A model generated the notes under the pieces. The model was not told where the DNA came from. It was given only the letters and a program-made list of their open reading frames with translations, and did no database searches. Of a stretch of DNA of 51,812 bases, positions 20,573 through 49,288 are shown one piece after another. Origin of the DNA: an uncultured Planctomycetaceae bacterium (GTDB lineage: Bacteria; Planctomycetota; Phycisphaerae; UBA1845; UTPLA1); assembly GCA_964470125.1 (NCBI GenBank), contig CAYYBO010000002.1, forward strand, positions 1-51,812, read 5' to 3'. The position numbers and the translations under genes are program-made. The first letter of the stretch is position 1; the number at the start of each line of letters is the position of its first letter.

Positions 20573-23233
20573 ATGGAGCTGCCGCTCTTCCAACATCACG
20601 GCGACTGCAGAGCCTGCCCGTTGGCGGAGCGGGCTAAGAGGCGGGGGCTGCGTACACGCGCTGCCTCGGGACTTACTGCTCCGCAACACAGTAAAGCCCT
20701 GGTATTCGTGGGTGCCGCCCCCGCCGCCGACGAGGAACGCACGGGCGTTGTCTACTGCGGCCCCGCCGGCACCCACCTCAACGGCACCTACATCCGTGGG
20801 CACAGCCTCAACAAGCTGGCTGATTGCTACCTGACGAATGCGTGCCGGTGCTTCCCCCGGGGACGGTCGGGCGTCGACCCCGTCGAAATCATGGCCTGTC
20901 GGCAATGGCTGCTCGAAGACCTGGAGCTGCTGCGCGCGCAGTACGAGGAGGTTGTGCTCGTCGCTTGCGGCTCCGAAGGCATTCACGCACTGCTGGGCCG
21001 AAACTGCTCTATCGGGACGTTTCCCCAGGGCCACCCGCAGCAACTCGGCGACCACCAGTACACGTGCTTCGCCACGTACCAGCCGGCGATCCTGCTGCCG
21101 AACCGCGACCCGGCGAAGTTGCCCGCCATCAAAGACCACCTGATGCTGGTGCGGCGGTGGCTGCGGACCGGCCGACTCCACGATCCGGTGGAGCTGCCCC
21201 GGCAACTCTATGGCCCGTCGGTGCCGGACCCGCCCGCGAACTGCGGCATCATCTCGCTGGACATCGAGACGTACGGGTGCGTCGAGAGGCAGCCGGTGCA
21301 GCGCTGCTTCCAGCCGACACACTCCGTTGCACTCGACGGCGTAAAGCCTTCGCAGCTGGTTCAGACAGTGGGCTTAGCCTGGAAGCAGAACGGCGTCGTT
21401 CGCACGAAACTCTACCGCATGTGCATCGCGGACGACCGGCGGCGGCTCCTTGCCGCACTGAAGAGGCAGCGAAAACTGCGACTGCTCTCCAACAATGTGC
21501 AGTTCGACGTGGTGAACCTGCGCTACTTCGACGAGGAGTTCCGCCGGGTTATCTCCCGCGAGGCCGGCTGCGAGCTGATCGACCTGATGGTCTATTCGTT
21601 CCTGGAGAACGACGCTCGCCCCGAGCGCAGCCTGAAGAGCTTCGTGGTGCTGTTCGGCATTGCCGACTACTACGACGAGCCCGTCGACCTGCGGAAGGGC
21701 CAGCGCTACCGCTCGGTTTATGACGGGCGGCTCCACCTCTACAACTGCAAGGACGCTGTCTGCACGCTGCTGTGCCTGGACGCCGTGCTCGACGGGATCG
21801 CCGACCGCTACGGTGCGGGCTCGCCGAAACTCTCCGCCGAAACGCGGACCTGGTACTCCGAGGCGCTGTGGCTGGCCGTCACCATGAGCGAGCAAGGTGT
21901 CATGTACGACATACCGGCTCTGGAGATGATCCGCGAGCGTCTGCAGCGCACTCTCGACCGGCTGTGGCAGTGGGGCGCCCCTCGCGACTTGCTAATGTGC
22001 AACGTCGGCAAAACAACCGGCAGCAAGACCTCGCAGCAGAAGCTCGTCGATGAGCTGGTGCGGAAGTACGCGCCGAAGACCGGCCCCGCCAAGCGGAACT
22101 TCGATCAGCAGCTGCTCCTAACCGAAAAGAAGGGAGACGTCTCCACCAAAGACGTGAACCTCACACTGCTCCGCGCCCAGGTTCCGAGAGGGACCGCGGC
22201 ACGGGCCGTCGACAACGAGTACTTCGAGAAGGTCGTGCGGCTGCAGCGCTTCCGCCGGCTCTTCAAACTGCAGACGAGCTACGTGCATCCGCTGCTCGGG
22301 CTGTCCCCCGACAACATCGAGTCCCAGCACATCAACGGAGTGGTGCACCCACGGTGGCACATCATCCCCAGCCGCTGGGCGGAGAACACCCCGGAGACTG
22401 GCCGGCAGCGCGAAGGCGGGCAGCGGCAAGCTCGCTTCTCGGCGCAGGACCCTCCCATCGCCACGCAGCCCGACTTCATCAGCGCGTGTCAGCGCAGCCG
22501 CTTCAAGGACGGCGCGACGCTGTCGTGCGACCTCTCTCAAATCGAGCTGAGGGTGCCGGTGATCTACAGTGGCGACCCGGTGATGCTGGCCTTGTTCGTG
22601 CAGGGCGTCTCGCTGCACGCGAAAACGGCGACGGAGCTGTGCGGTCGACCCATCGACAAGAAGAAGGACCCCGTCTGGTACGACGCCGGCAAGCACGCGA
22701 ACTTCCTGCGGGTTTACGGCGGCGGTGCGCCCAAGCTCCAGCAGACAATCCTGCTGCTGACGCACCAGAACATCCCGCTGGGCGAACTCGAAGCGTGGAT
22801 CGACGCCGACCGCCAACGCTACCCGGTGTTCTACGCGTGGCAGGAGTCCCTCTACGTGGAGGCGCAGACGAAGCATCGACTCAGCCTCCCGCTCACGGGG
22901 CTGCACCGGACGTTCCTGGGCGACGTGCGCAAGACCTACCGCTCCGAGATACTCAACTTCCCGGTGCAGGGCCTGGCTGCCATGCTCGCCCAATCAGCGC
23001 AGTTCGCCGTGGACCGGGAGCTGCGGCGGCACCGCGCGCGGACAGTCACCTACTCCAACGTGTACGATGCGGGCTACTACGACTGTCCTGCTGACGAGGT
23101 CGCCGAAGTGGAGAAACTCGTCCTGAAGTGGTTTAAGAAACCTCCGCTGTACGACTGGCTACTGGAGCACGGGTACGCCGCGTGTCCCCTTGACGCGGAG
23201 GTCAAAATCAGGTATAATACCTTGGCCGCATAG
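20573..23233 (+). CDS. family A DNA polymerase with 3'-5' exonuclease and an N-terminal family-4 UDG-like domain
   Basis: 886 aa.
- N-terminus: GDCRACPLAE and LVFVGAAPAADEERTGVVYCGPAGTHL, which match the UDG family 4 layout.
- Exonuclease motifs: SLDIETYG, NNVQFDVVNL, LYNCKDAV.
- Polymerase motif A: DLSQIELRV.
- Polymerase motif B: GKHANFLRVYGGG.
- Polymerase motif C-like: NVYDAGYY. Confidence 0.85.
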   Translation: MELPLFQHHGDCRACPLAERAKRRGLRTRAASGLTAPQHSKALVFVGAAPAADEERTGVVYCGPAGTHLNGTYIRGHSLNKLADCYLTNACRCFPRGRSGVDPVEIMACRQWLLEDLELLRAQYEEVVLVACGSEGIHALLGRNCSIGTFPQGHPQQLGDHQYTCFATYQPAILLPNRDPAKLPAIKDHLMLVRRWLRTGRLHDPVELPRQLYGPSVPDPPANCGIISLDIETYGCVERQPVQRCFQPTHSVALDGVKPSQLVQTVGLAWKQNGVVRTKLYRMCIADDRRRLLAALKRQRKLRLLSNNVQFDVVNLRYFDEEFRRVISREAGCELIDLMVYSFLENDARPERSLKSFVVLFGIADYYDEPVDLRKGQRYRSVYDGRLHLYNCKDAVCTLLCLDAVLDGIADRYGAGSPKLSAETRTWYSEALWLAVTMSEQGVMYDIPALEMIRERLQRTLDRLWQWGAPRDLLMCNVGKTTGSKTSQQKLVDELVRKYAPKTGPAKRNFDQQLLLTEKKGDVSTKDVNLTLLRAQVPRGTAARAVDNEYFEKVVRLQRFRRLFKLQTSYVHPLLGLSPDNIESQHINGVVHPRWHIIPSRWAENTPETGRQREGGQRQARFSAQDPPIATQPDFISACQRSRFKDGATLSCDLSQIELRVPVIYSGDPVMLALFVQGVSLHAKTATELCGRPIDKKKDPVWYDAGKHANFLRVYGGGAPKLQQTILLLTHQNIPLGELEAWIDADRQRYPVFYAWQESLYVEAQTKHRLSLPLTGLHRTFLGDVRKTYRSEILNFPVQGLAAMLAQSAQFAVDRELRRHRARTVTYSNVYDAGYYDCPADEVAEVEKLVLKWFKKPPLYDWLLEHGYAACPLDAEVKIRYNTLAA
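23190..23218 (+). promoter_or_regulatory. near-perfect sigma70 promoter at the 3' end of the polymerase gene
   Basis: TTGACG (23190-23195), 17-nt spacer, TATAAT (23213-23218). About 25 nt upstream of the next gene. Confidence 0.6.
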
Positions 23234-34508: not shown

Positions 34509-34763
34509 ATGAGCACGTGTACTGAATGCGGTTGCGAGATGGACCGCTTCGACGCACAGGAGAGCGAAGCCTGCCGCCGTTGCCGCAAGATCGAGCTGCA
34601 GGCGGATGGCTTGCCGGCCTCGACGTTCGAGGTTCGACAGTTCTATCCGCCGGCCCACCTGGCACCCGGAGCCCGCAAGGACCTCCAGGAGATTCTGTCT
34701 CTGCTGGCTGATCCCGAAGAGTCCGACGAGGACGATAGCGTACCGAATTACTTCCCGCACTAA
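34509..34763 (+). CDS. zinc-ribbon protein with acidic tail
   Basis: ATG at 34509. 84 aa. CTECGC...CRRC. Confidence 0.45.
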   Translation: MSTCTECGCEMDRFDAQESEACRRCRKIELQADGLPASTFEVRQFYPPAHLAPGARKDLQEILSLLADPEESDEDDSVPNYFPH

Positions 34764-34779
34764 CCGGAGACCGAGGACA

Positions 34780-36126
34780 ATGCCCGACGAAGATGACGCT
34801 CTAAGTAACGCGCGCCTGGCTCGGAGCTACCTGGCGTCGAGCCGCTACCTCGGCACCCAAGCCTTATGGTGGTGGAACGGATCGTTCTGGCGGTGGCGCC
34901 CGGAGCACCCGGTGTATCAGCAACTGGGGTTCGACGAACAGGCGCATGAAGTTCTCAACTGGCTGATCCGTCAGGAAATCTCCGCTTCCTACCGCACCGC
35001 CGAAGCCGTCACGCACTGCGTGTCCGCACTTGCGACGCTGCCTCGGCACATCAAGCAACCCAGCTGGATCGGCGGTGCTCGCTCACGGCACGAGTGGTAC
35101 ATCGCCATGAAGAATCGGCTGGTTGATCCACTGGGGCTGGTGGCTGGTGACGCTCGCATGGTTCAGAAGCACACGCCCCAGTGGTTTTCTCAAACGATCC
35201 TGCCGTACCCCTACGACCGCAAGGCTCTCTGCCCGCACTTCCAGGAGTGGCTCCTCCAGATGATGGACGGGCACACCGATCGCTGTGACGTGGTGCAGGA
35301 GTTCTTTGGGTACTGGCTGATCCCGGACACGTCTCGCCAGCTGAGCCTGTTCCTGGTGGGGCCGAGCGGCACGGGCAAGTCAACCCTCCTCAACGTAGCG
35401 AAGAACCTCATCGGCGTAACCAACTGCAGTTTCATCGGGCTGAGCGACCTGGGGAAGCGGTTCTCCCTGTCTCCGATGGTCGGCAAGCTGCTCAACATCT
35501 CTGATGAGGCACGCGACGGCAAGCTCGGACGCGACGCCGAGGCTGTGTTCAAGTGGTTGGTTGGCGGCGCTGAGATGTCGCTCGAAGACAAGAACATCAG
35601 GTACTGGACACAGAAGCTGCAGACTCGACAGGTGGTCGCGCTCAACGCCTGGCCTGAGTTCACGGACACGGCCGGAGCGACATACCGCCGTATCCGCGTG
35701 GTGCCCATGCAGCACAAGATCGGCGACTACAAGTACGACCCCGGGGTCGAGACGCGGCTCCTTGAGGAACTGCCCGGCATCTTCAACTGGGCGATCCTCG
35801 GACTGAAGCGCGTCCTGGCGACGGGGATGAGCAGATGTCGCGCCGGAGAGCTGGTGCTGGAGCAGTGTCGTCAGCGGAACCAGCCGACCATAGAATTCAC
35901 CAAAGATCGAATCGAACCTGACGAGACCGGCTTCGTCTCGAACGCCACGCTGGTGCAGTCGTACCGAAGCTGGCTCGAAGACCAGGGCCAACGAGGCACC
36001 GCCGACGCAACGGAGCTTTTCTCGGCGATTCAGCAACGCGTACCCGGAGCAAGAGCAGGCCGCCCTCGCACCGCCAACAAGGCAGGCGAGCGGCCGCGTG
36101 GAGTGTTCGGCATCAAGTTGGTGTGA
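34780..36126 (+). CDS. D5/P4-family SF3 helicase (primase C-terminal-type NTPase)
   Basis: ATG at 34780. 448 aa. Walker A LVGPSGTGKST, Walker B LLNISDEA, motif C VVALNAWPEF, then YRRIRVVPM. Confidence 0.75.
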   Translation: MPDEDDALSNARLARSYLASSRYLGTQALWWWNGSFWRWRPEHPVYQQLGFDEQAHEVLNWLIRQEISASYRTAEAVTHCVSALATLPRHIKQPSWIGGARSRHEWYIAMKNRLVDPLGLVAGDARMVQKHTPQWFSQTILPYPYDRKALCPHFQEWLLQMMDGHTDRCDVVQEFFGYWLIPDTSRQLSLFLVGPSGTGKSTLLNVAKNLIGVTNCSFIGLSDLGKRFSLSPMVGKLLNISDEARDGKLGRDAEAVFKWLVGGAEMSLEDKNIRYWTQKLQTRQVVALNAWPEFTDTAGATYRRIRVVPMQHKIGDYKYDPGVETRLLEELPGIFNWAILGLKRVLATGMSRCRAGELVLEQCRQRNQPTIEFTKDRIEPDETGFVSNATLVQSYRSWLEDQGQRGTADATELFSAIQQRVPGARAGRPRTANKAGERPRGVFGIKLV

Positions 36127-36479: not shown

Positions 36480-36833
36480 ATGAAAGCTGCACGACTGACT
36501 GTGTATTGCCCACGACGTCCGCAAGGCGCCATGCCTCTCCATGAGCAAGTGCGGTACGAGTTCTCGCGAGCCTTTGGTGGATGCACTCTGCTGCTGGGCG
36601 AGGGCGAGTGGGTTGATCCCCGCAACGAACATGTAGTAGAGCCGGTCGCTGTAGTCCAGGTCATGCTGGAGCCGGAGATCGTGCCGTCTGCCGTGGCGTT
36701 GGCGCAGGCAATCCTGGCGAAGGCGGACGAGCAGGTCATGTGCTATACGGTGGAGGAAACGGATGTCGAATTTGTCCAGCTCCAGGCGGACGAGCCACCG
36801 GCCGGTAAGTCGGATTCTCCAGAGCTACCTTGA
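36480..36833 (+). CDS. hypothetical protein
   Basis: 117 aa with AGGAG RBS at 36466-36470. Confidence 0.5.
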   Translation: MKAARLTVYCPRRPQGAMPLHEQVRYEFSRAFGGCTLLLGEGEWVDPRNEHVVEPVAVVQVMLEPEIVPSAVALAQAILAKADEQVMCYTVEETDVEFVQLQADEPPAGKSDSPELP

Positions 36834-37356
36834 GGCGTGGGAGCGAGCGCCGGAGTGGGTGCGGGACGAGGGGCGTCGGTGGTACATCAATGCGCAGAAG
36901 CACGCTGACTACATCGCCTTTGCCACTGGCCTGAGTCGCACACAGGCAGCAGGCGTAGTCGCAGCGCTGTCCCCACAGAAATCCTGGACCGAGAACGTGC
37001 GCATCGCTCGGCTCGTCGCTCAGCATAAGTGGGGACACCACACTCGTGCGCAGGAATGGGCGGCGTGTCGCATCATGCTGGGTGAGGACCCCACGCTGGT
37101 GCTCCGTGGCGCGAAGACCCGGGCGTTCTACTGGTCGATCATCGCTCCGCATCACACGCATCGTGAGTGGGGCTGCGTCGACCGCCACATGCTGAAGCTG
37201 GCGGGGCTGGAGCCGTCGCCCAGGGCAACGCAGGTTTGCCAGCGGGCGCTGACGATCCTGGCCCGCATGAGCAACGAAAGTATACCTACCGTACAAGCTG
37301 CGCTGTGGTTGGTTCAGCGGTTCGCTGGTCGGCATCAGCGACTCCTTCCCCTGTAA
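36763..37356 (+). CDS. hypothetical conserved-looking phage protein
   Basis: 197 aa with GGAGGA RBS at 36752-36757. Overlaps the previous ORF by 71 nt. Segments WYINAQKHADYIA...ALSPQKSW...GAKTRAFYW...VDRHM look like a conserved family that I cannot name. Confidence 0.5.
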   Translation: MSNLSSSRRTSHRPVSRILQSYLEAWERAPEWVRDEGRRWYINAQKHADYIAFATGLSRTQAAGVVAALSPQKSWTENVRIARLVAQHKWGHHTRAQEWAACRIMLGEDPTLVLRGAKTRAFYWSIIAPHHTHREWGCVDRHMLKLAGLEPSPRATQVCQRALTILARMSNESIPTVQAALWLVQRFAGRHQRLLPL

Positions 37357-39832: not shown

Positions 39833-40285
39833 ATGGTCGTCAACTGTGCGTCGTACTTGAGAGTCTTGATTGACACTGAGACCCGGGAGCAACATCAGCG
39901 GAAGGTGGCTGCGCGGGTGCGTCGGAGGTTCCCGAGAGCGGCCAGCATCGTGTGCACGGGAGTGAGCGGGCTGTTGATTGGACCCGCCGTGGCGACGCTG
40001 CTGAAGCTGCCACTCGTGGTGGTCCGTCGAAAAGGCGACCCGTCTCACTCTAGTCGGCCCTGCGAAGGAGATCGCGTCGACCCGTATGTGATTGTTGACG
40101 ACCTGACGGCTTCGGGGGCTACCATAGCTCGTATCTGCGACGCGCTCGGTGATCCGACGGGGCGCCACTGCGTGGGCGTGGTGACGCTGGGAAACGGGAA
40201 CTCAAACGGCTGGGACTACCTAACAGCCCTGCCGAAGCGGTTCGCGAAGCGGAAGCTGGTTTCCTGCGAAGTTCCTCTTATCTGA
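39833..40285 (+). CDS. small type I phosphoribosyltransferase (Gpt/Apt-like size and layout)
   Basis: 150 aa with AGGAGG RBS. IVCTGVSGLLIGPAVATLLKLPLVVVRRKG, plus the PRPP-binding loop YVIVDDLTASGATI. Confidence 0.65.
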   Translation: MVVNCASYLRVLIDTETREQHQRKVAARVRRRFPRAASIVCTGVSGLLIGPAVATLLKLPLVVVRRKGDPSHSSRPCEGDRVDPYVIVDDLTASGATIARICDALGDPTGRHCVGVVTLGNGNSNGWDYLTALPKRFAKRKLVSCEVPLI

Positions 40286-40297
40286 AAGGCGACTGAC

Positions 40298-40573
40298 ATG
40301 GAGATTGGTAATATTGTTGACCCACGGCTGGAGAGGGGCTCACAGAAGTACATTGATCGGCTGCGGACGCGTCCCGGTAGTCTGGAGGCTCTTCAGGCGG
40401 CGGCCGATCTGGCGTGTCTCCTGTACCAGACGAACCGGCCGATCCCTGTGGAGATCATGAAGGCGGTGGTGTACGCGGCGTGGTCGCTGGTCCAGGTCGT
40501 CCGGGCGAACCAATCGGTGGACCCACCGAAAACCGCAGCCCCGGCGCCGGGCGAAGGCGGGGGTGCCGTATGA
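40298..40573 (+). CDS. hypothetical 91-aa protein translationally coupled to the radical-SAM gene
   Basis: Its stop overlaps the radical-SAM start (ATGA at 40570). Helical N-terminus and a P/A/G-rich C-terminal tail. Confidence 0.5.
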   Translation: MEIGNIVDPRLERGSQKYIDRLRTRPGSLEALQAAADLACLLYQTNRPIPVEIMKAVVYAAWSLVQVVRANQSVDPPKTAAPAPGEGGGAV

Positions 40574-41754
40574 TTCACCTGATTGATTGCGTCGAACCGA
40601 ATCGCTTCGAGCTGTTCCTGCGGAAGCACGTCTACCCCAAGATACCCGGCTACCAGCTGCCGACGGGGCCGATGGAGCTGCCGGTGTGGGCGGCTCGCCT
40701 GCTGAGTCTGCCGCGGTTGATGGAGTATCGCTGCATCCACCATGCCCGCGACCTGTTCCCGGTGTTCAGTGAGCGACGACTCGACCTGGACGTGTACGTG
40801 TTCGCGATCAGCTCGGATAACGCCGCGCTGGTGCTCCAGTGCCTGAAGGAGTGCTCGGAGATCGGGTGCCAGGCGTACGTCGGCGGCTCGTTTGGGGCGT
40901 TCGAGTCGCTCGGGGCTGCCGCGGCCGGGACAGGAGCGGTGTGGTGCAACTCCCTGGAGCAGCTAGCGGAGAAGCTGGTAGACCGGCCAGCCCGTCTGTA
41001 TGAGGAGTGGGGCCGGCTACCCAGCGGGACGGTCATGCGGCTGCGAGTGGACGGTGCGTGCCCGTGGGGCAGCTGCATCTTCTGCTATGGAATTCCGCAG
41101 CAGGCGAACTCGTCGATGGACGCGACGGCCGTGCGGCGGCGGGCGGCGGCGTTGGGAGCGGTGCGGCCGAGCTACGTCTATTGGGACGAGAAGATGTTCC
41201 CGTGGACCGAAGACCGCTCGCAGCTCATGGAGAGCCTCTTAAGCCACGAGCTTCGCGGGGCTCGCGGCTTCGTGGTCCAGACGAACCCCCGGTGGCTACC
41301 GGACCCACGGACAGGAACGTATGCGTGGACGGCGGTGCGGGTTGTGGAACTCGGGCTGGAGGCATTCAACGAGTCGGCGCTCGTCTTCCTGAACAAGCCG
41401 CACGCCCTCATGTCGGACAAAGACTACTCGGAGCGGCTGCAGTGGGTGGGGCTGGCGCTCGGTGCTTATGTGCTGCCGTACATCCTGCTGGGCGTGCCGA
41501 AGCAGCCGCCGGGCGAAGTCGTCGAGGAACTCACCTGGATGAAGCGGATGTTCGGGGATAGGCTGCCGGGCGTCCAGTTGAACTGGTTGGCGGCGTATCC
41601 GGGCACCCGGCTGGAGAGCTGGTGCGAGAGGCGCTTCGGCCACGTCACCGCCGCCGACCGTAGCCAGCTCACTCACGACAAGACCTGGCTCACCGAAGAC
41701 GAGCAACAGGCCTGGCTCACGGCAGAGCGTGACATCATGGGGATGTTCGCCTGA
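40570..41754 (+). CDS. radical SAM enzyme with N-terminal B12-binding-like domain and a variant Cx4Cx2C cluster motif
   Basis: 394 aa.
- Rossmann-like N-terminal region: DVYVFAISSDNAALVLQCLKE...AYVGGSFGA.
- Cluster motif: DGACPWGSCIFCYG (41059-41085).
- VELGLEAFNESAL, YILLGVPKQPPGE and AAYPGTRL match the class B radical-SAM layout. Confidence 0.6.
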   Translation: MIHLIDCVEPNRFELFLRKHVYPKIPGYQLPTGPMELPVWAARLLSLPRLMEYRCIHHARDLFPVFSERRLDLDVYVFAISSDNAALVLQCLKECSEIGCQAYVGGSFGAFESLGAAAAGTGAVWCNSLEQLAEKLVDRPARLYEEWGRLPSGTVMRLRVDGACPWGSCIFCYGIPQQANSSMDATAVRRRAAALGAVRPSYVYWDEKMFPWTEDRSQLMESLLSHELRGARGFVVQTNPRWLPDPRTGTYAWTAVRVVELGLEAFNESALVFLNKPHALMSDKDYSERLQWVGLALGAYVLPYILLGVPKQPPGEVVEELTWMKRMFGDRLPGVQLNWLAAYPGTRLESWCERRFGHVTAADRSQLTHDKTWLTEDEQQAWLTAERDIMGMFA

Positions 41755-41785
41755 AACGGCAAGGGCGTCTCTTAGGAGTGCAGCG

Positions 41786-42250
41786 ATGTGTTTAAGCACC
41801 GCAACCAAAATCGCCAAGCCGCATAGCGGCTACGGCTACAAGGTCGTGCGAGTTTGCGTCGGCCCGAGGGGAAAACTCAGGTGGCGCTCGCTCTACTTCG
41901 GCAGGACGTGGAGGCCCGTCAAGAAGTGGTGCAGGGCGCGCCGAGTGCACCTCTGTCCCGAGTCGATGTGGGGTAAGTTTTACTTGTCGGGCTTTCATAT
42001 GCTGAAGCAGCTGGCGGACGTCGAGAAGTACGTCGGACTCGCCGATCGGGGTTGGTGGCCGCGGCGCGGGTCGGAGCGCTGGTGGAAGATGATCGCCGCG
42101 AAGGTATGTCGCCACCACGCTGTGGTGCGCGTCAAGTTCGAGGGCGCGGACTGGTGGGGGTTGGACGACACCGGACAGAAGGACGGCGCGAGAGCGGTAG
42201 TTGCTCCACGCATGATGGTCGAGAAAATCCTGTGTGAAGGGACACGGTAG
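41786..42250 (+). CDS. hypothetical W/R-rich protein starting Met-Cys
   Basis: ATG at 41786 follows AGGAG. 154 aa. GYGYKVVRV...LSGFHMLKQLADVEKYV resembles widespread uncharacterised phage proteins with a G-Y-K-V...G-F-H pattern. Confidence 0.5.
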   Translation: MCLSTATKIAKPHSGYGYKVVRVCVGPRGKLRWRSLYFGRTWRPVKKWCRARRVHLCPESMWGKFYLSGFHMLKQLADVEKYVGLADRGWWPRRGSERWWKMIAAKVCRHHAVVRVKFEGADWWGLDDTGQKDGARAVVAPRMMVEKILCEGTR

Positions 42251-42362: not shown

Positions 42363-42560
42363 ATGAAAACCCGGCTGAAGTGGAGAGTTGTTGGTCACGA
42401 TGAGGACACCCAGTGCTATCACTGTGGTCGCGAGCTGATGTGGGGCGATACGGTCCTCAAGGACACGAATGGCCTGGACGGACCGGAACGCGTCTTCTGC
42501 AACCGCTACTGTGCCGACGCGTCCGAACGCGACCCCGAGAGAGAGGCGGTGCTCGATTGA
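42363..42560 (+). CDS. small zinc-binding protein
   Basis: 65 aa with CYHC...CNRYC. Confidence 0.5.
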   Translation: MKTRLKWRVVGHDEDTQCYHCGRELMWGDTVLKDTNGLDGPERVFCNRYCADASERDPEREAVLD

Positions 42561-43823: not shown

Positions 43824-43844
43824 CCCCCCCCGGCTCACGCAACG

Positions 43845-43888
43845 CCCCCCTGTCTGCGGGTTCATCCTGCGGGCAGGGGGGTTTTTTT
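43845..43888 (+). terminator. strong rho-independent terminator
   Basis: CCCCCCTGTCTGCGGG (43845-43860) pairs with CCTGCGGGCAGGGGGG (43866-43881). 16-bp stem with 3 G-U pairs and a 5-nt loop. Followed by T7 (43882-43888). Confidence 0.85.
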
Positions 43889-43942
43889 ATGTCTTGGCGG
43901 AAGTCCGCAGACAAGAGGGGGGCAGGGGGCGGGGGGTTCCTA

Positions 43943-44013
43943 CCCTAACATTAACCTAACGCCCGTACGCGGCGCCCTAACGCCAACCTAACGCGGTAAA
44001 TCGTACCCTAACG
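43943..44013 (+). repeat. array of five direct (C/A)CCTAAC(G) iteron-like repeats with helical phasing
   Basis: CCTAAC starts at 43944, 43955, 43976, 43987 and 44007, giving spacings of 11, 21, 11 and 20 bp. An inverted pair CCCTAAC-aggc-GTTAGGG lies at 44605-44622. Confidence 0.8.
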
Positions 44014-44327
44014 ATGCTAATAGTAACGCCCGGAGGTTTGGTTCCGCCCCCGCGACGCCTGCAGGCCGGGGGGTAAGGCCAAGTTTTTCCACGGCAATCC
44101 CCCCGCGATCCGCTGCCCCCTCGCGCCCTGCCACCACAAAGCCTGCAGCCCCCCTCACTTACCTCCAATTTGTGGGTGGTCCCGCCTCTAAGTGTTGTGG
44201 TGGCCGCCACTTACCGCTGCGGCTCCCTCAGCTTTCCCCTAATTAGGGACACCCAGCACTTTTTCCCGTTTCCGGAAGAAGCCCCTGGCGCGCTGGAAAC
44301 GCCTCTGGACAAAAGGATATTTAGAGG

Positions 44328-44358
44328 TGGTCCATATCATGTGGACCATGTCCGATTT
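44328..44358. promoter_or_regulatory. left 31-bp composite operator: TGGTCCA-N7-TGGACCA palindrome plus TGTCCGATTT
   Basis: Read directly. The 17-nt tggaccatgtccgattt (44342-44358) is the exact reverse complement of 44756-44772. Confidence 0.6.
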
Positions 44359-44755
44359 GTAAGTCCTTGTCAATAAAGGACGCAATTTCGGACCTCCAGG
44401 TCCTGGTCCACTCGGGAGCGGTTCTGGTCCACATCAGGACATCTTTGTCTGGACCAGGTTTATTAATGTAACCCACGCAGCCACCGCCACTTACGAGAGC
44501 CCCTCCTTCAAAAACACCTCTTGGTCCATCGAAAAGGTGTATACTATGGGTATAGGGGTTTTCTCTGGTGTGAGGAATAGTAATAGGGTTTTGGATGGAC
44601 CACACCCTAACAGGCGTTAGGGTCGCGCCGCAACCTGCGCTGCAGCCACGACTTGCGTAAACAAGCTGGTCCAGACACGTTTATCCGAATGTGGACCACT
44701 CCGTCAACCGACCACCCTATCCGAAATGTAACTCCAGTGGCCGCCGCAACTTCGA

Positions 44756-44786
44756 AAATCGGACATGGTCCATATTAAGTGGACCA
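44756..44786. promoter_or_regulatory. right 31-bp composite operator (inverted copy of 44328..44358)
   Basis: AAATCGGACA, then TGGTCCA-N7-TGGACCA. Mirror arrangement of the left element, about 400 bp away. Confidence 0.6.
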
Positions 44787-44851
44787 GACAAAGATATCCG
44801 TTGAGTTTTATGGGACGTGCTGCCGGCCGCCCCCCGGGCCGCCCCCCGGAC

Positions 44852-44880
44852 TTGACGCCGCCGGCCTTTCGTGGTATACT
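44852..44880 (+). promoter_or_regulatory. sigma70-like promoter with extended -10, heading the + strand gene train
   Basis: TTGACG (44852-44857), 17-nt spacer, TGgTATACT (44872-44880). Lies in intergenic DNA, about 25 nt upstream of the RBS of the first gene. Confidence 0.6.
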
Positions 44881-44904
44881 ATACAAGTAGTAAGTTGACT
44901 GGAG

Positions 44905-47224: not shown

Positions 47225-47348
47225 GACGCTGCTGTTTGTGTGTGCTGGGGTGCTGCTGACCGTGACGCTGTGTCTGGTGGTCGCTCTTGGCGCCGTGGCC
47301 CTGGTTCGTGATGTCATCAACGAATGGAGCCGCAAACCCAAATGCTAA
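47217..47348 (+). CDS. 43-aa single-pass membrane mini-protein (not in the ORF track)
   Basis: A GAGGAGGAGGAGGA run lies 5 nt upstream of ATG at 47217. Product: MFETLLFVCAGVLLTVTLCLVVALGAVALVRDVINEWSRKPKC. Confidence 0.4.
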   Translation: MFETLLFVCAGVLLTVTLCLVVALGAVALVRDVINEWSRKPKC

Positions 47349-49288
47349 GGTGGAAGTGGGTACCGGTTGAGCGCGAGGGCAACGCGGCGTGGCCGCTCCC
47401 CCCCGACTACGTTGACCTCACCGACGAAGGCCAGCGCCTGGCTCGCGTCAACGCCACGTTGATGCAGCACGACCCGGGCCTGGCCACTGAGTCGTGGCTG
47501 TGGTTCTGCCGCTGCTACCTGATGCCCGATCCAGCCGCCGACTTCAACCCCGGGTTCTACGCACCGCCGATCCGCGAGTTCGGCTTCGTGCATCCGATGG
47601 TGATCCGGGGGATCGAAGCGAACCGGCGCTGCGTCATTTCGTTGCCGCGAGGTTCCGCCAAGACCACCACCCTCCAATCCTACATGCTGTTCAAAACCTG
47701 CACCCACACGCAGTACCGCATCAGGTTCTACAAGTCGACCCGTGCCTACGTCGAAGAGGACATCACCGCCATCCGCGACCAGCTGGAGCGCAACCAGCGG
47801 CTGATCGACGACTTCGGCGACATCGTCCCCGGCCGCCGGGAAGGGGTCTGGTCGCACGAGAAGCTGCGCACCGCCACCCTCGTGCGCATTGTGGGGCAGT
47901 CGGTGGGTGCGCGCAAGCTGAGGGGCGGCCGCGCTGAGCTGATCGTCCTCGACGACCCGGAGTACGATCCGGACAACCCTCTTCAATCCGACGTTGAGGT
48001 TGATCGGCTGGCCCGCAAGATCACTCGCGTCCTGCTGCCGATGCTCGATCGCGACGAGGACACGCCCTCGCAGTCGGGGCGCTTCGTCTATCTCGGGACG
48101 CCGATCCACAAGCGCTCGCTGCACTACACCCTGATCGCTCCCGACGTGCTGCTGCCAGACCGGCCCGCCCAGTTCCGCGACGCCCTTTGGTATAAGATTA
48201 ACGTGCCGGCCAAGCTGGTGCAAACGCAGCCGGACGGCTCAAGCAAGGTCGTCCGCGCCTGGTCGAAGTTCAGCGACGCGTTCCTCGACGAGCAGCGGGA
48301 GTTGCTGACAGACGCCGGTTACGGCAGCGAGTACGGCGGCGACCCCGTCAGCAGCGACAAGTGCATCTTCGAGTTGAGGCCGAGCCTCCACGAATATCAC
48401 CTGGAGGCAGCGGACCTGGGCGCGGTCTACGAGCAGCCCTTCGACACGCCGTGCACCGTCCACTGGCATGAGTGCTACGGAGTCGAGCCGGTGAAGACGA
48501 CCCCCCGCTCCGCCGCGTTCTCCGACCACATTCGAGCTATGTATAGGTTCGTGACCGTGGACTACGCCTACACCGCCAAAACCACCTCCGACTGGTCTGT
48601 GGTGCACGTGATGGGCGTCGATCGGAGGAACGACCTGTGGTCGCTGGACATGTGGAGGGGCCGCGTGAAGTTCCCGTTCCTCGTTGGCCAGATTTGGCGT
48701 CTCGCCCTCAAGTGGCACGTCATGGCCGTGGGCGTCGAGGCCTACCCCGTGCAGGAGGAGTACTACCAACAGGCAGCGGCGTACGCCGAGCACATCTACG
48801 AGCAGTACGGGTTCTGTCCGCCGTGCATCCCCATCAAGCCGCCCATCGACAAGGGGCAGCGCATCATGCGGTTGGCCTTCCGCGTTGAGCGAGGCAAGCT
48901 GAAGCTACCCGCGCACCGTCGGTATCAGCCGCCCTACTACCAACTCTACCAGCAGATCAGGGACTTCACCGAGGACCTGGCGAATCTGCCCCACGACGAC
49001 GAACTCGACACGCTCAGCATGTCGGCGGACATCCTGCGGGGTCGCTCCAAAGCTACGCCAGCCGGCCCTACGCCCGCCACGCCCCTGGAACAGATCAACC
49101 AGGGCCAGCTCATCGACGACTCGACCGGCATCAGCTGGTTGAGGGGCTTGTCTTTTGACCGGATTCCTGCTATAATACTCAATCGACTTATGGACGATCA
49201 AGTTGCCAGCAAAGCCGAGCAGTATCGACGCGCTGCGGAGGACCCCGCCACGGCAGCGCTCCATATGCTCGGCTACGCGGAGGATTAA
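47324..49288 (+). CDS. terL: terminase large subunit
   Basis: 654 aa (alternative start ATG at 47342).
- Walker A-like: ISLPRGSAKTTT.
- Walker B: AELIVLDDPE.
- YLGTPIH.
- Nuclease motifs: FVTVDYAYTAKTTSDWS and HDDELDTLSM. Confidence 0.85.
   Translation: MEPQTQMLRWKWVPVEREGNAAWPLPPDYVDLTDEGQRLARVNATLMQHDPGLATESWLWFCRCYLMPDPAADFNPGFYAPPIREFGFVHPMVIRGIEANRRCVISLPRGSAKTTTLQSYMLFKTCTHTQYRIRFYKSTRAYVEEDITAIRDQLERNQRLIDDFGDIVPGRREGVWSHEKLRTATLVRIVGQSVGARKLRGGRAELIVLDDPEYDPDNPLQSDVEVDRLARKITRVLLPMLDRDEDTPSQSGRFVYLGTPIHKRSLHYTLIAPDVLLPDRPAQFRDALWYKINVPAKLVQTQPDGSSKVVRAWSKFSDAFLDEQRELLTDAGYGSEYGGDPVSSDKCIFELRPSLHEYHLEAADLGAVYEQPFDTPCTVHWHECYGVEPVKTTPRSAAFSDHIRAMYRFVTVDYAYTAKTTSDWSVVHVMGVDRRNDLWSLDMWRGRVKFPFLVGQIWRLALKWHVMAVGVEAYPVQEEYYQQAAAYAEHIYEQYGFCPPCIPIKPPIDKGQRIMRLAFRVERGKLKLPAHRRYQPPYYQLYQQIRDFTEDLANLPHDDELDTLSMSADILRGRSKATPAGPTPATPLEQINQGQLIDDSTGISWLRGLSFDRIPAIILNRLMDDQVASKAEQYRRAAEDPATAALHMLGYAED
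49148..49176 (+). promoter_or_regulatory. extended -10 sigma70-like promoter embedded near the 3' end of terL
   Basis: TTGTCT (49148-49153), 17-nt spacer, TGcTATAAT (49168-49176). Confidence 0.45.

Follow-up and report, generated by a model that had tools for sequence, protein, structure and literature searches.

The window considered here is the whole stretch of DNA that was analysed, 51,812 nucleotides, and is a 51.8-kb contig of 64% GC in which all convincing genes lie on the + strand. The layout is that of a tailed phage very distant from the cultured ones, and a megablast search of 50,697 phage records with the 39-43 kb region as query gave no match. The subject is a block of four consecutive genes in this region, in which a gene for a small predicted phosphoribosyltransferase (PRTase) and a gene for a predicted radical S-adenosylmethionine (SAM) enzyme of 394 amino acids (aa) are found close together. 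The features of the block are the following.

39833-40285, + strand: predicted minimal type I PRTase, 150 aa
40298-40573, + strand: orphan protein, 91 aa, the stop codon of which overlaps the start of the radical-SAM gene (ATGA)
40570-41754, + strand: predicted radical-SAM enzyme, 394 aa from the ATG in the ATGA overlap
41059-41085, + strand: predicted [4Fe-4S] ligand motif CPWGSCIFC (C164-PWGS-C169-IF-C172, CX4CX2C), from translation
41786-42250, + strand: basic, Trp-rich orphan protein, 154 aa, starting with MC

An earlier note on this DNA, made from the sequence alone, had described the four open reading frames (ORFs), the phosphoribosyl pyrophosphate (PRPP) loop VIVDDLTASGATI, the ATGA overlap and the motif C-PWGS-C-IF-C, and translation confirms each of them in its place. 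The GC content at third codon positions is high in all four ORFs (0.72-0.81), and Shine-Dalgarno-like sequences are found before the PRTase gene (TAGGAGG), the radical-SAM gene (GAAGG..GGGGG) and the 154-aa gene (AGGAG). The exact sequences of all four proteins are called genes in public collections, on contigs of at most 52 kb. The real start of the 394-aa gene is ATG 40570 and not the upstream GTG 40414, because the N-terminus MIHL[IM]DCV is kept in three lineages and the ORF of the relative L004, described below, starts exactly there.

Searches with the single sequence of the 394-aa protein against Pfam, PHROGs, NCBIfam, PADLOC, the PDB sequences and a phage database gave nothing usable, the best matches being TIGR01212 (E 0.013) and PbeC (E 0.026). 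Only two close non-identical relatives, with 72% and 53% identity, were found among 5.8 billion clustered proteins. A family profile built from three close homologs and searched against 1.84 billion representatives (E<=1e-3) gave 273 distant relatives, the best of which carry a significant PF04055 Radical_SAM match. Among the stand-alone relatives PF04055 is found in 43 of 46 and the B12-binding domain PF02310 in 8 of 46 (best E 1.7e-4). The window protein itself falls below the gathering threshold of PF04055 and is without a Pfam match, while 43 of its 46 homologs pass, so that its membership in the radical-SAM superfamily rests on transitive homology together with the fold. A word-indexed search with the 46-sequence family alignment returned only four proteins. 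Against the PDB sequences the family profile matched 9ccb, RimO (3e-10), AprD4, Elp3 (1e-6), CysS and OxsB; among solved structures the best matches by sequence profile are MiaB/RimO/MtaB and Elp3.

The AlphaFold model of the 394-aa protein was built on the 46 distant homologs and reached a predicted local distance difference test score (pLDDT) of 92.5 and a predicted template modelling score (pTM) of 0.89; the three-sequence alignment gave a pLDDT of just 37.5. The model consists of a Rossmann beta/alpha domain (aa 2-137) followed by a beta/alpha partial barrel (aa ~150-394). A Foldseek search of the PDB with the full-length model placed AprD4 first (E 2.8e-11, template modelling score 0.62), together with CysS and TsrM and then MtaB, MiaB and RimO, while Elp3, viperin, HemN and MoaA matched the barrel only. 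All of the top 27 structural matches in the PDB with E <1e-3 are radical-SAM enzymes, or complexes or models that hold one. The best predicted viral structures are proteins of uncultured phages that are uncharacterised and labelled 'COG1032 Fe-S oxidoreductase / B12-binding_like'. By sequence family and by modelled fold the 394-aa protein is thus a radical-SAM enzyme. The class B layout that the earlier note had proposed, an N-terminal Rossmann domain of the B12-binding kind followed by the barrel, is right at the level of the predicted fold, with the PF04055 and PF02310 matches of the relatives and the structural search in agreement; the domain may bind cobalamin.

The order of the two domains agrees with that in the B12-binding-domain radical-SAM enzymes AprD4, CysS, TsrM and OxsB (PF02310 and PF04055), and the motifs GxE...L..KP and G-x-P-x-x-x-x-E, which are typical of that branch, are both present. 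Identity to these enzymes is however just 10-14%. The 394-aa protein is shorter than they are (450-740 aa) and lacks their C-terminal extra domain, its own C-terminus being modelled as a single helix (aa 376-393), and the N-domain carries a family-specific motif, FWE-x-P-x-W. The setting also differs, with phages and polyvalent proteins for the 394-aa family and antibiotic biosynthesis for the other group. From MiaB/RimO/MtaB the protein is set apart by the absence of the three-Cys UPF0004 N-domain, with its auxiliary cluster, and of the C-terminal TRAM domain, and from Elp3 by the absence of the acetyltransferase domain. The positions that are invariant in the 46 family members are three Cys (C164, C169 and C172), P38, W40, G106, R157, Q237, E260, G262, E264 and L271. 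All are retained in the window protein, as are the likewise family-invariant K276-P277 and G308 and, with DEK as its equivalent, the DDK of the family. No Cys outside the radical-SAM loop is invariant among the 46; the lack of a second conserved Cys set rules out an auxiliary cluster of the methylthiotransferase or the SPASM type.

The spacing of the three Cys in the loop, one residue longer than the canonical one, had been singled out in the earlier note. The window protein and its two close relatives all keep C-PW[GS]x-C-[IV]F-C, and CX4CX2C is limited to the clade of the window protein and the neighbouring clade of protein P0010 (CKYGRCVFC). In nearly all of the remaining relatives the loop is the canonical CX3CX2C, with CLHKCAFC as its typical form. 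The longer spacing is not without precedent. A review of cobalamin-dependent radical-SAM enzymes gives CX4CX2C as the motif of OxsB (PMC9204698), and RadicalSAM.org holds a megacluster with the same spacing (PMC9477430). In archaeal Elp3 structures CPHGKCIFC was aligned to CPWG-CVFC, and that loop is almost identical to the CPWGSCIFC of the window. The CX4CX2C loop is a real and clade-conserved feature that was already known elsewhere.

The wider family is found mainly inside very large proteins. About half of the best 150 profile matches are internal domains of proteins of 1,100-5,500 aa, and at the IMG/VR viral loci with a relative the ORFs are giant (1,100-5,000 aa) in about 38 of 52. In the same giant polypeptides Pfam identified ART-PolyVal (up to three copies), the 'large polyvalent protein associated domain' LPD23, NUDIX, GNAT, DUF3990 and DUF7178, with weak matches to GemA and RelA_SpoT. 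By this domain company the 394-aa protein of the window is a stand-alone copy of a phage-restricted domain that is mostly embedded in giant polyvalent proteins. The earlier note had missed this, and also that the pairing with a PRTase is, among the sequences compared, peculiar to a small clade. The family is nearly absent from cultured phages, where one weak match was obtained, from an unannotated faecal contig. It is present in metagenome-assembled genomes labelled Polyangiaceae, Dehalococcoidia, Elusimicrobia, Saccharimonadales and Neptuniibacter and in one Aliirhizobium isolate.

Polyvalent proteins were proposed by Iyer et al. 2017 to be delivered with the DNA and to act in the first phase of infection (PMC5512222). 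The 131 domains listed there include the PRTase, the role of which is called 'somewhat enigmatic', and solo and fused PRTases of invasive elements are placed in the same polyvalent network, with nucleotide production or sensing at DNA entry as the proposed function (PMC5512222). The terms radical, Fe-S, 4Fe-4S, iron-sulfur, AdoMet and adenosylmethionine are all absent from the text of that article (PMC5512222). The proteins described there are single giant polypeptides, whereas the window has separate small genes in an array of replication and accessory genes; unlike the window module, the radical-SAM-bearing giants that were examined are without a PRTase.

In 60 of 101 giants a peptide with the pattern T-x-P-x-x-T-Y-x-x-A...N-x-W-V-R-x-x-x-x-x-x-N stands directly N-terminal of the radical-SAM domain (L015-L062, P0013-P0157). 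An upstream 'domain' at this position was considered and rejected, as what is conserved is a short peptide (T.P..TY..A...N.WVR) and no separate domain. The peptide may serve as a linker or a processing site, or may extend the radical-SAM domain at its N-terminus.

The 150-aa protein had been described in the earlier note as a type I PRTase, with which the searches agree. It matches phrog_2068 'phosphoribosyl transferase' with E 1.5e-12 and PF00156 with E 7e-5, the latter at 22.7 bits and thus below the gathering cut-off of 26.3. Scores for the NCBIfam Apt and PyrE models are far under the cut-offs, and matches in the PDB to orotate and adenine PRTases (OPRTase, APRTase) are weak (E 5e-4 to 1e-2). 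The alignments span the G-x-S-G loop, the VRRK strand, the OPRTase-like RK...H...EG flexible loop, here VRRKGDPSHSSRPCEG, and the PRPP loop. The latter, VIVDDLTASGATI, is encoded at 40088-40126, and YVIVDDLTASGAT, at 40085-40123, conforms to the PRPP-loop pattern of four hydrophobic and two acidic residues followed by x-x-[ST]-G-x-T. The core fills residues ~35-125 of 150 and is bare; no hood or base-specificity subdomain is seen in the protein, and the acceptor base is therefore not predictable.

A word-indexed homolog search with the PRTase returned the query itself only. The nearest database relatives are the PRTases of mycobacteriophages of cluster A, such as gp66 of Timshel, with 36-43% identity over the core. 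Timshel gp66 and phrog_2068 have the core motifs G-x-S-G, [AV]R[RK], HS..R..EG and DDL.ASG.T in common with the window protein, and the cluster-A and window proteins are alike solo PRTases in arrays of non-structural genes. Timshel gp66 differs in its length (225 aa), in a long N-terminal extension and in the absence of a radical-SAM neighbour. The equivalent of the PRPP loop is LFLDDLIASGRT in Timshel and YLIVDDCVASGCT in the PRTase of L004, which is 40% identical to that of the window; the PRTases of L004 and the window both have an intact PRPP loop and RK...H...EG loop. On these motifs the 150-aa protein is classed as a minimal type I PRTase like those that invasive elements carry.

Close relatives of the block were found on three contig sets, L001/L002, L003 (JGI 3300010429) and L004 (SRR15435039). 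The phage in L001 and L002 is in essence that of the window. The flanks in L003 are 97-100% identical to the window DNA, with a strongly diverged segment within the radical-SAM gene and a clean gap of ~500 bp in place of the 154-aa gene; the next gene after the radical-SAM gene is there the 65-aa zinc-ribbon-like gene listed below. L004 alone is a truly independent relative, with 53% identity in the radical-SAM protein. In L004 a 157-aa PRTase (40% identity) stops 27 nt before the start of the radical-SAM gene, and both the 91-aa gene and the 154-aa gene are absent. The four-gene operon assumed in the earlier note is thus reduced, outside near-identical phages, to the PRTase and the radical-SAM gene, and this pair is the conserved core, with two effectively independent observations. 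No further members of the clade with CX4CX2C and a PRTase were found in scans of IMG/VR and JGI metagenomes, and a degenerate DNA pattern for PGVQLNWL gave 42 matches on metagenomes, all of them by chance.

Within the near-identical phages the radical-SAM gene varies in blocks. Nearly all differences between P0004 and the window protein fall in aa 240-355, with 57-75% identity per 20-aa block there, while P0002 differs from the window protein mainly in aa 40-200, where 20-aa blocks go down to 20-25% identity. The diverged segments correspond to 40700-41160 and 41290-41640 in the window. By this pattern the gene is a recombination mosaic among near-identical phages. In the 91-aa protein 13 codon changes relative to L003 are nonsynonymous and 6 synonymous, and at the C-terminus of the PRTase nonsynonymous changes also exceed synonymous ones, although the counts are small. 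The mosaic and the nonsynonymous excess would fit an accessory gene that often recombines or is subject to diversifying pressure.

The two remaining genes of the block are accessory and probably lineage-specific passengers. The 154-aa protein has no homologs outside contigs of the window type. Family searches with the 91-aa protein gave no match and its sole homolog is in the near-identical L003. That the radical-SAM enzyme should modify this translationally coupled protein, in the manner of a ribosomally synthesised and post-translationally modified peptide (RiPP), was suggested in the earlier note from the ATGA coupling of stop and start, and the 45 C-terminal residues of the 91-aa protein are indeed identical in L003. 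This identity lies within DNA that is ~97-100% identical and reflects recent shared ancestry. The 91-aa gene is dispensable, being absent from L004 and from every other neighbourhood of the family, and the enzyme has neither extra conserved Cys for SPASM or twitch clusters nor features of a RiPP recognition element, which makes a RiPP-like role very improbable. The further proposal that the enzyme acts on an adjacent tRNA-like RNA did not hold either. ARAGORN found no tRNA in the window and Rfam nothing at the gathering score; at a relaxed threshold Rfam gave only a meaningless 18-nt fragment of transfer-messenger RNA.

The block belongs to a long co-directional array, which begins at the replication genes and is closed by a terminator at 43844-43892. 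The module of PRTase and radical-SAM gene is found at the end of the replication and accessory genes, downstream of the DNA polymerase, the primase-helicase and the DUF7178 gene, and is placed with these and not with the structural genes. The other features of the window referred to here are listed below.

20573-23233, + strand: family A DNA polymerase fused to a uracil-DNA-glycosylase (UDG)-superfamily domain
34606-36126, + strand: D5_N/DUF5906 primase-helicase
36763-37356, + strand: DUF7178 protein (PF23802, E 1.9e-27)
42363-42560, + strand: CxxC...CxxxC zinc-ribbon-like protein, 65 aa
43844-43892, + strand: strong intrinsic terminator, 17-bp stem and T7 run
47324-49288, + strand: terminase large subunit, distant

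In the window DUF7178 is encoded 3.2 kb upstream of the radical-SAM gene, within the same co-directional array, and elsewhere it is the most frequent partner of the radical-SAM family, adjacent, near or fused in about 25 loci. It adjoins stand-alone radical-SAM genes or lies within ~2 kb of them in L009, L014, L033, L048, L055, L063 and L110, is a few kb away in L005 and L006, and is part of one polypeptide with the radical-SAM domain in at least 14 loci. Searches of the PDB with DUF7178 profiles of 8 and 20 sequences gave archaeal and bacterial 8-oxoguanine DNA glycosylase/apurinic-apyrimidinic lyases of the Ogg2 type as top matches (E 4.6e-4 to 9e-2). The sole family-invariant Lys and Asp of DUF7178 align in the GyKea...iDRHilR stretch of MjOgg, where the catalytic pair of HhH-GPD enzymes lies. 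Pfam shows no link between DUF7178 and the HhH-GPD families, such a link being seen in the PDB profile search alone. DUF7178 may have an Ogg2-like HhH-GPD glycosylase/lyase fold, which with these marginal statistics is a lead rather than a result. As a recurrent partner it points towards DNA and nucleobases as the context of the family.

One reading of this association is a DNA modification or base exchange, in which DUF7178 would remove or exchange a base, the PRTase would salvage or activate it and the radical-SAM enzyme would build or alter a modified base. The genes for the three proteins stand in one co-directional array beside replication genes, DUF7178 resembles Ogg2 glycosylases including the invariant Lys and Asp, and the DNA polymerase has an N-terminal UDG-superfamily domain. 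The glycosylase homology is however marginal (E ~5e-4), the DUF7178 gene is separated from the pair by 2.5 kb and five unrelated ORFs, and neither a transglycosylase of the tRNA-guanine transglycosylase (TGT) or DpdA type nor deazapurine genes nor a hydroxymethylase were found. The contigs of L003 and L004 are too short to reveal whether DUF7178 travels with the pair. Taken together this makes the reading improbable.

A number of further observations concern the array and its surroundings. The UDG-superfamily domain of the polymerase ORF at 20573-23233 is N-terminal and matches PF03167 with E 4e-14. A second phage lineage that is syntenic with the window, L005 (Logan SRR35384393, a 49.9-kb contig) and L006, has the order AAA_24, primase-helicase, DUF7178, radical-SAM gene and terminase. 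Its radical-SAM protein, P0010, has CX4CX2C and a divergent N-domain; a PRTase is absent, and a Trp-rich repeat protein of 187 aa overlaps the start of the radical-SAM gene instead. In L008 a 75-aa ORF (1051-1278) overlaps the start of the radical-SAM gene, with the pattern C..CG..W...LDGP...C similar to that of the 65-aa zinc-ribbon-like protein of the window. The two are possibly related, in an alignment of two sequences only.

Downstream of the terminator the stretch 43893-44904 is free of genes. It contains CCTAAC repeats at 43943-44025 and, within 460 bp (44328-44786), 11 of the 24 TGGTCCA/TGGACCA sites of the window, for which about 6 would be expected by chance over the whole 51.8 kb. 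Several of the sites are inverted pairs, for example TGGTCCATATCATGTGGACCA. The cluster at 44328-44786 looks like an iteron or operator cluster and may act as an origin, or as a regulatory switch placed between the accessory and the late arrays. The sole good sigma-70-like promoter between 36 and 45.2 kb, TTGACG-17-TATACT with an upstream TG, is at 44852-44880, just before the next set of genes.

The reading preferred here, which is put forward tentatively, is that the PRTase and the radical-SAM enzyme are a coupled pair of effectors directed at nucleotides or nucleic acid. Transcription of the module would accompany that of the replication genes and fall in the early or middle phase of infection. 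From PRPP and a nucleobase-like acceptor the PRTase would form a ribonucleoside 5'-monophosphate, or it would bind such a ligand. The radical-SAM enzyme would cleave SAM reductively, and the 5'-deoxyadenosyl radical would abstract hydrogen from the nucleotide made by the PRTase or from a related sugar or base of nucleic acid, with the N-domain either holding cobalamin or only shaping the substrate pocket. The phage would profit from the altered nucleotide so formed, as a precursor of modified nucleic acid or as an agent that blocks or depletes a host defence pathway.

The catalytic signatures are intact in both enzymes at the sequence level, and their adjacency persists at 53% identity in the radical-SAM protein and 40% in the PRTase, while the 91-aa gene varies. 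A context of conflict systems is suggested by the giant relatives, because these carry ART-PolyVal, LPD23, NUDIX, GNAT and DUF7178, and recombination mosaicism is common in arms-race genes. OxsB acts on 2'-deoxyadenosine phosphates and, as a cobalamin-dependent radical-SAM enzyme with the same Cys spacing, is counted as a precedent for nucleotide-directed chemistry; AprD4, the best structural match, has a sugar diol as its substrate and is also counted as a precedent. In keeping with the earlier note, no described phage pathway that pairs a PRTase with a class B radical-SAM enzyme was found in the literature.

Several points weigh against a coupled pair. The pairing was seen in two independent lineages only, that of the window and L003 and that of L004. 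With a regular expression for the PRPP loop and a hidden Markov model of four sequences no PRTase was found near or inside other family members in 52 IMG/VR loci, 8 genome loci and ~75 giant proteins, from which it follows that the ancestral job of the radical-SAM family needs none. RimO/MiaB and Elp3, the nearest characterised relatives by sequence, modify macromolecules and not free nucleotides, and no kinase, transglycosylase or other gene of a nucleotide pathway was found near the pair. The PRTase could be a ligand-binding or regulatory protein, because its Pfam score is below threshold and a hood is lacking. Cobalamin may or may not be bound, and AprD4, the top structural match, with the same N-domain, is not known to use it.

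The main alternative is two independent effectors that happen to stand side by side, the radical-SAM enzyme modifying a macromolecule (DNA of host or phage, tRNA or rRNA, or protein), as would its relatives in polyvalent proteins, and the PRTase manipulating or sensing nucleotide pools. The wider family is never accompanied by a PRTase, has DUF7178 and the protein-modifying ART and GNAT domains as recurrent neighbours or fusion partners, and has its closest characterised relatives among enzymes of protein and tRNA modification; two family members also match weakly the model of spore photoproduct lyase, and mycobacteriophages carry solo PRTases that have no radical-SAM gene in their vicinity. 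On the other hand, the 27-nt adjacency is kept in L004 at 40-53% identity, the genes are translationally packed in the window, and the 394-aa protein has neither the auxiliary Cys and TRAM of methylthiotransferases nor the acetyltransferase domain of Elp3. Independent action is regarded as a quite possible, if somewhat doubtful, alternative.

A bolder form of the preferred coupled reading takes the radical-SAM domain as a widespread, undescribed module of polyvalent giants, tied to an Ogg2-like DUF7178, that in the window has been split off and coupled to a PRTase, and whose radical chemistry would then produce, change or destroy a nucleobase or nucleotide. This is thought rather unlikely. If true, it could mean, for example, a new DNA base modification or exchange or the inactivation of a nucleotide signal of host immunity, and would amount to a new class of counter-defence chemistry.

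The fold and the superfamily of the 394-aa protein are known, and a literature search found no description of this radical-SAM family, of its placement in polyvalent proteins, of its pairing with a PRTase or of DUF7178. Radical-SAM enzymes depend on a reductant and on an iron-sulfur cluster that is sensitive to oxygen. A recurrent radical-SAM domain in polyvalent proteins is unexpected, because the action of such proteins is believed to fall in the very first moments of infection. The radical-SAM enzyme is probably a tool of host takeover or counter-defence. For such chemistry the window is the simplest test system, with two small separate genes as against a protein of 3,000 aa, and if the pair makes a modified nucleotide, new nucleoside analogues could be obtained from it, with OxsB and oxetanocin as the parallel. 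A substrate for the radical-SAM family would add a new chemistry to the arms race between phages and their hosts, and DUF7178 and the solo PRTases of invasive elements would thereby be assigned a function.

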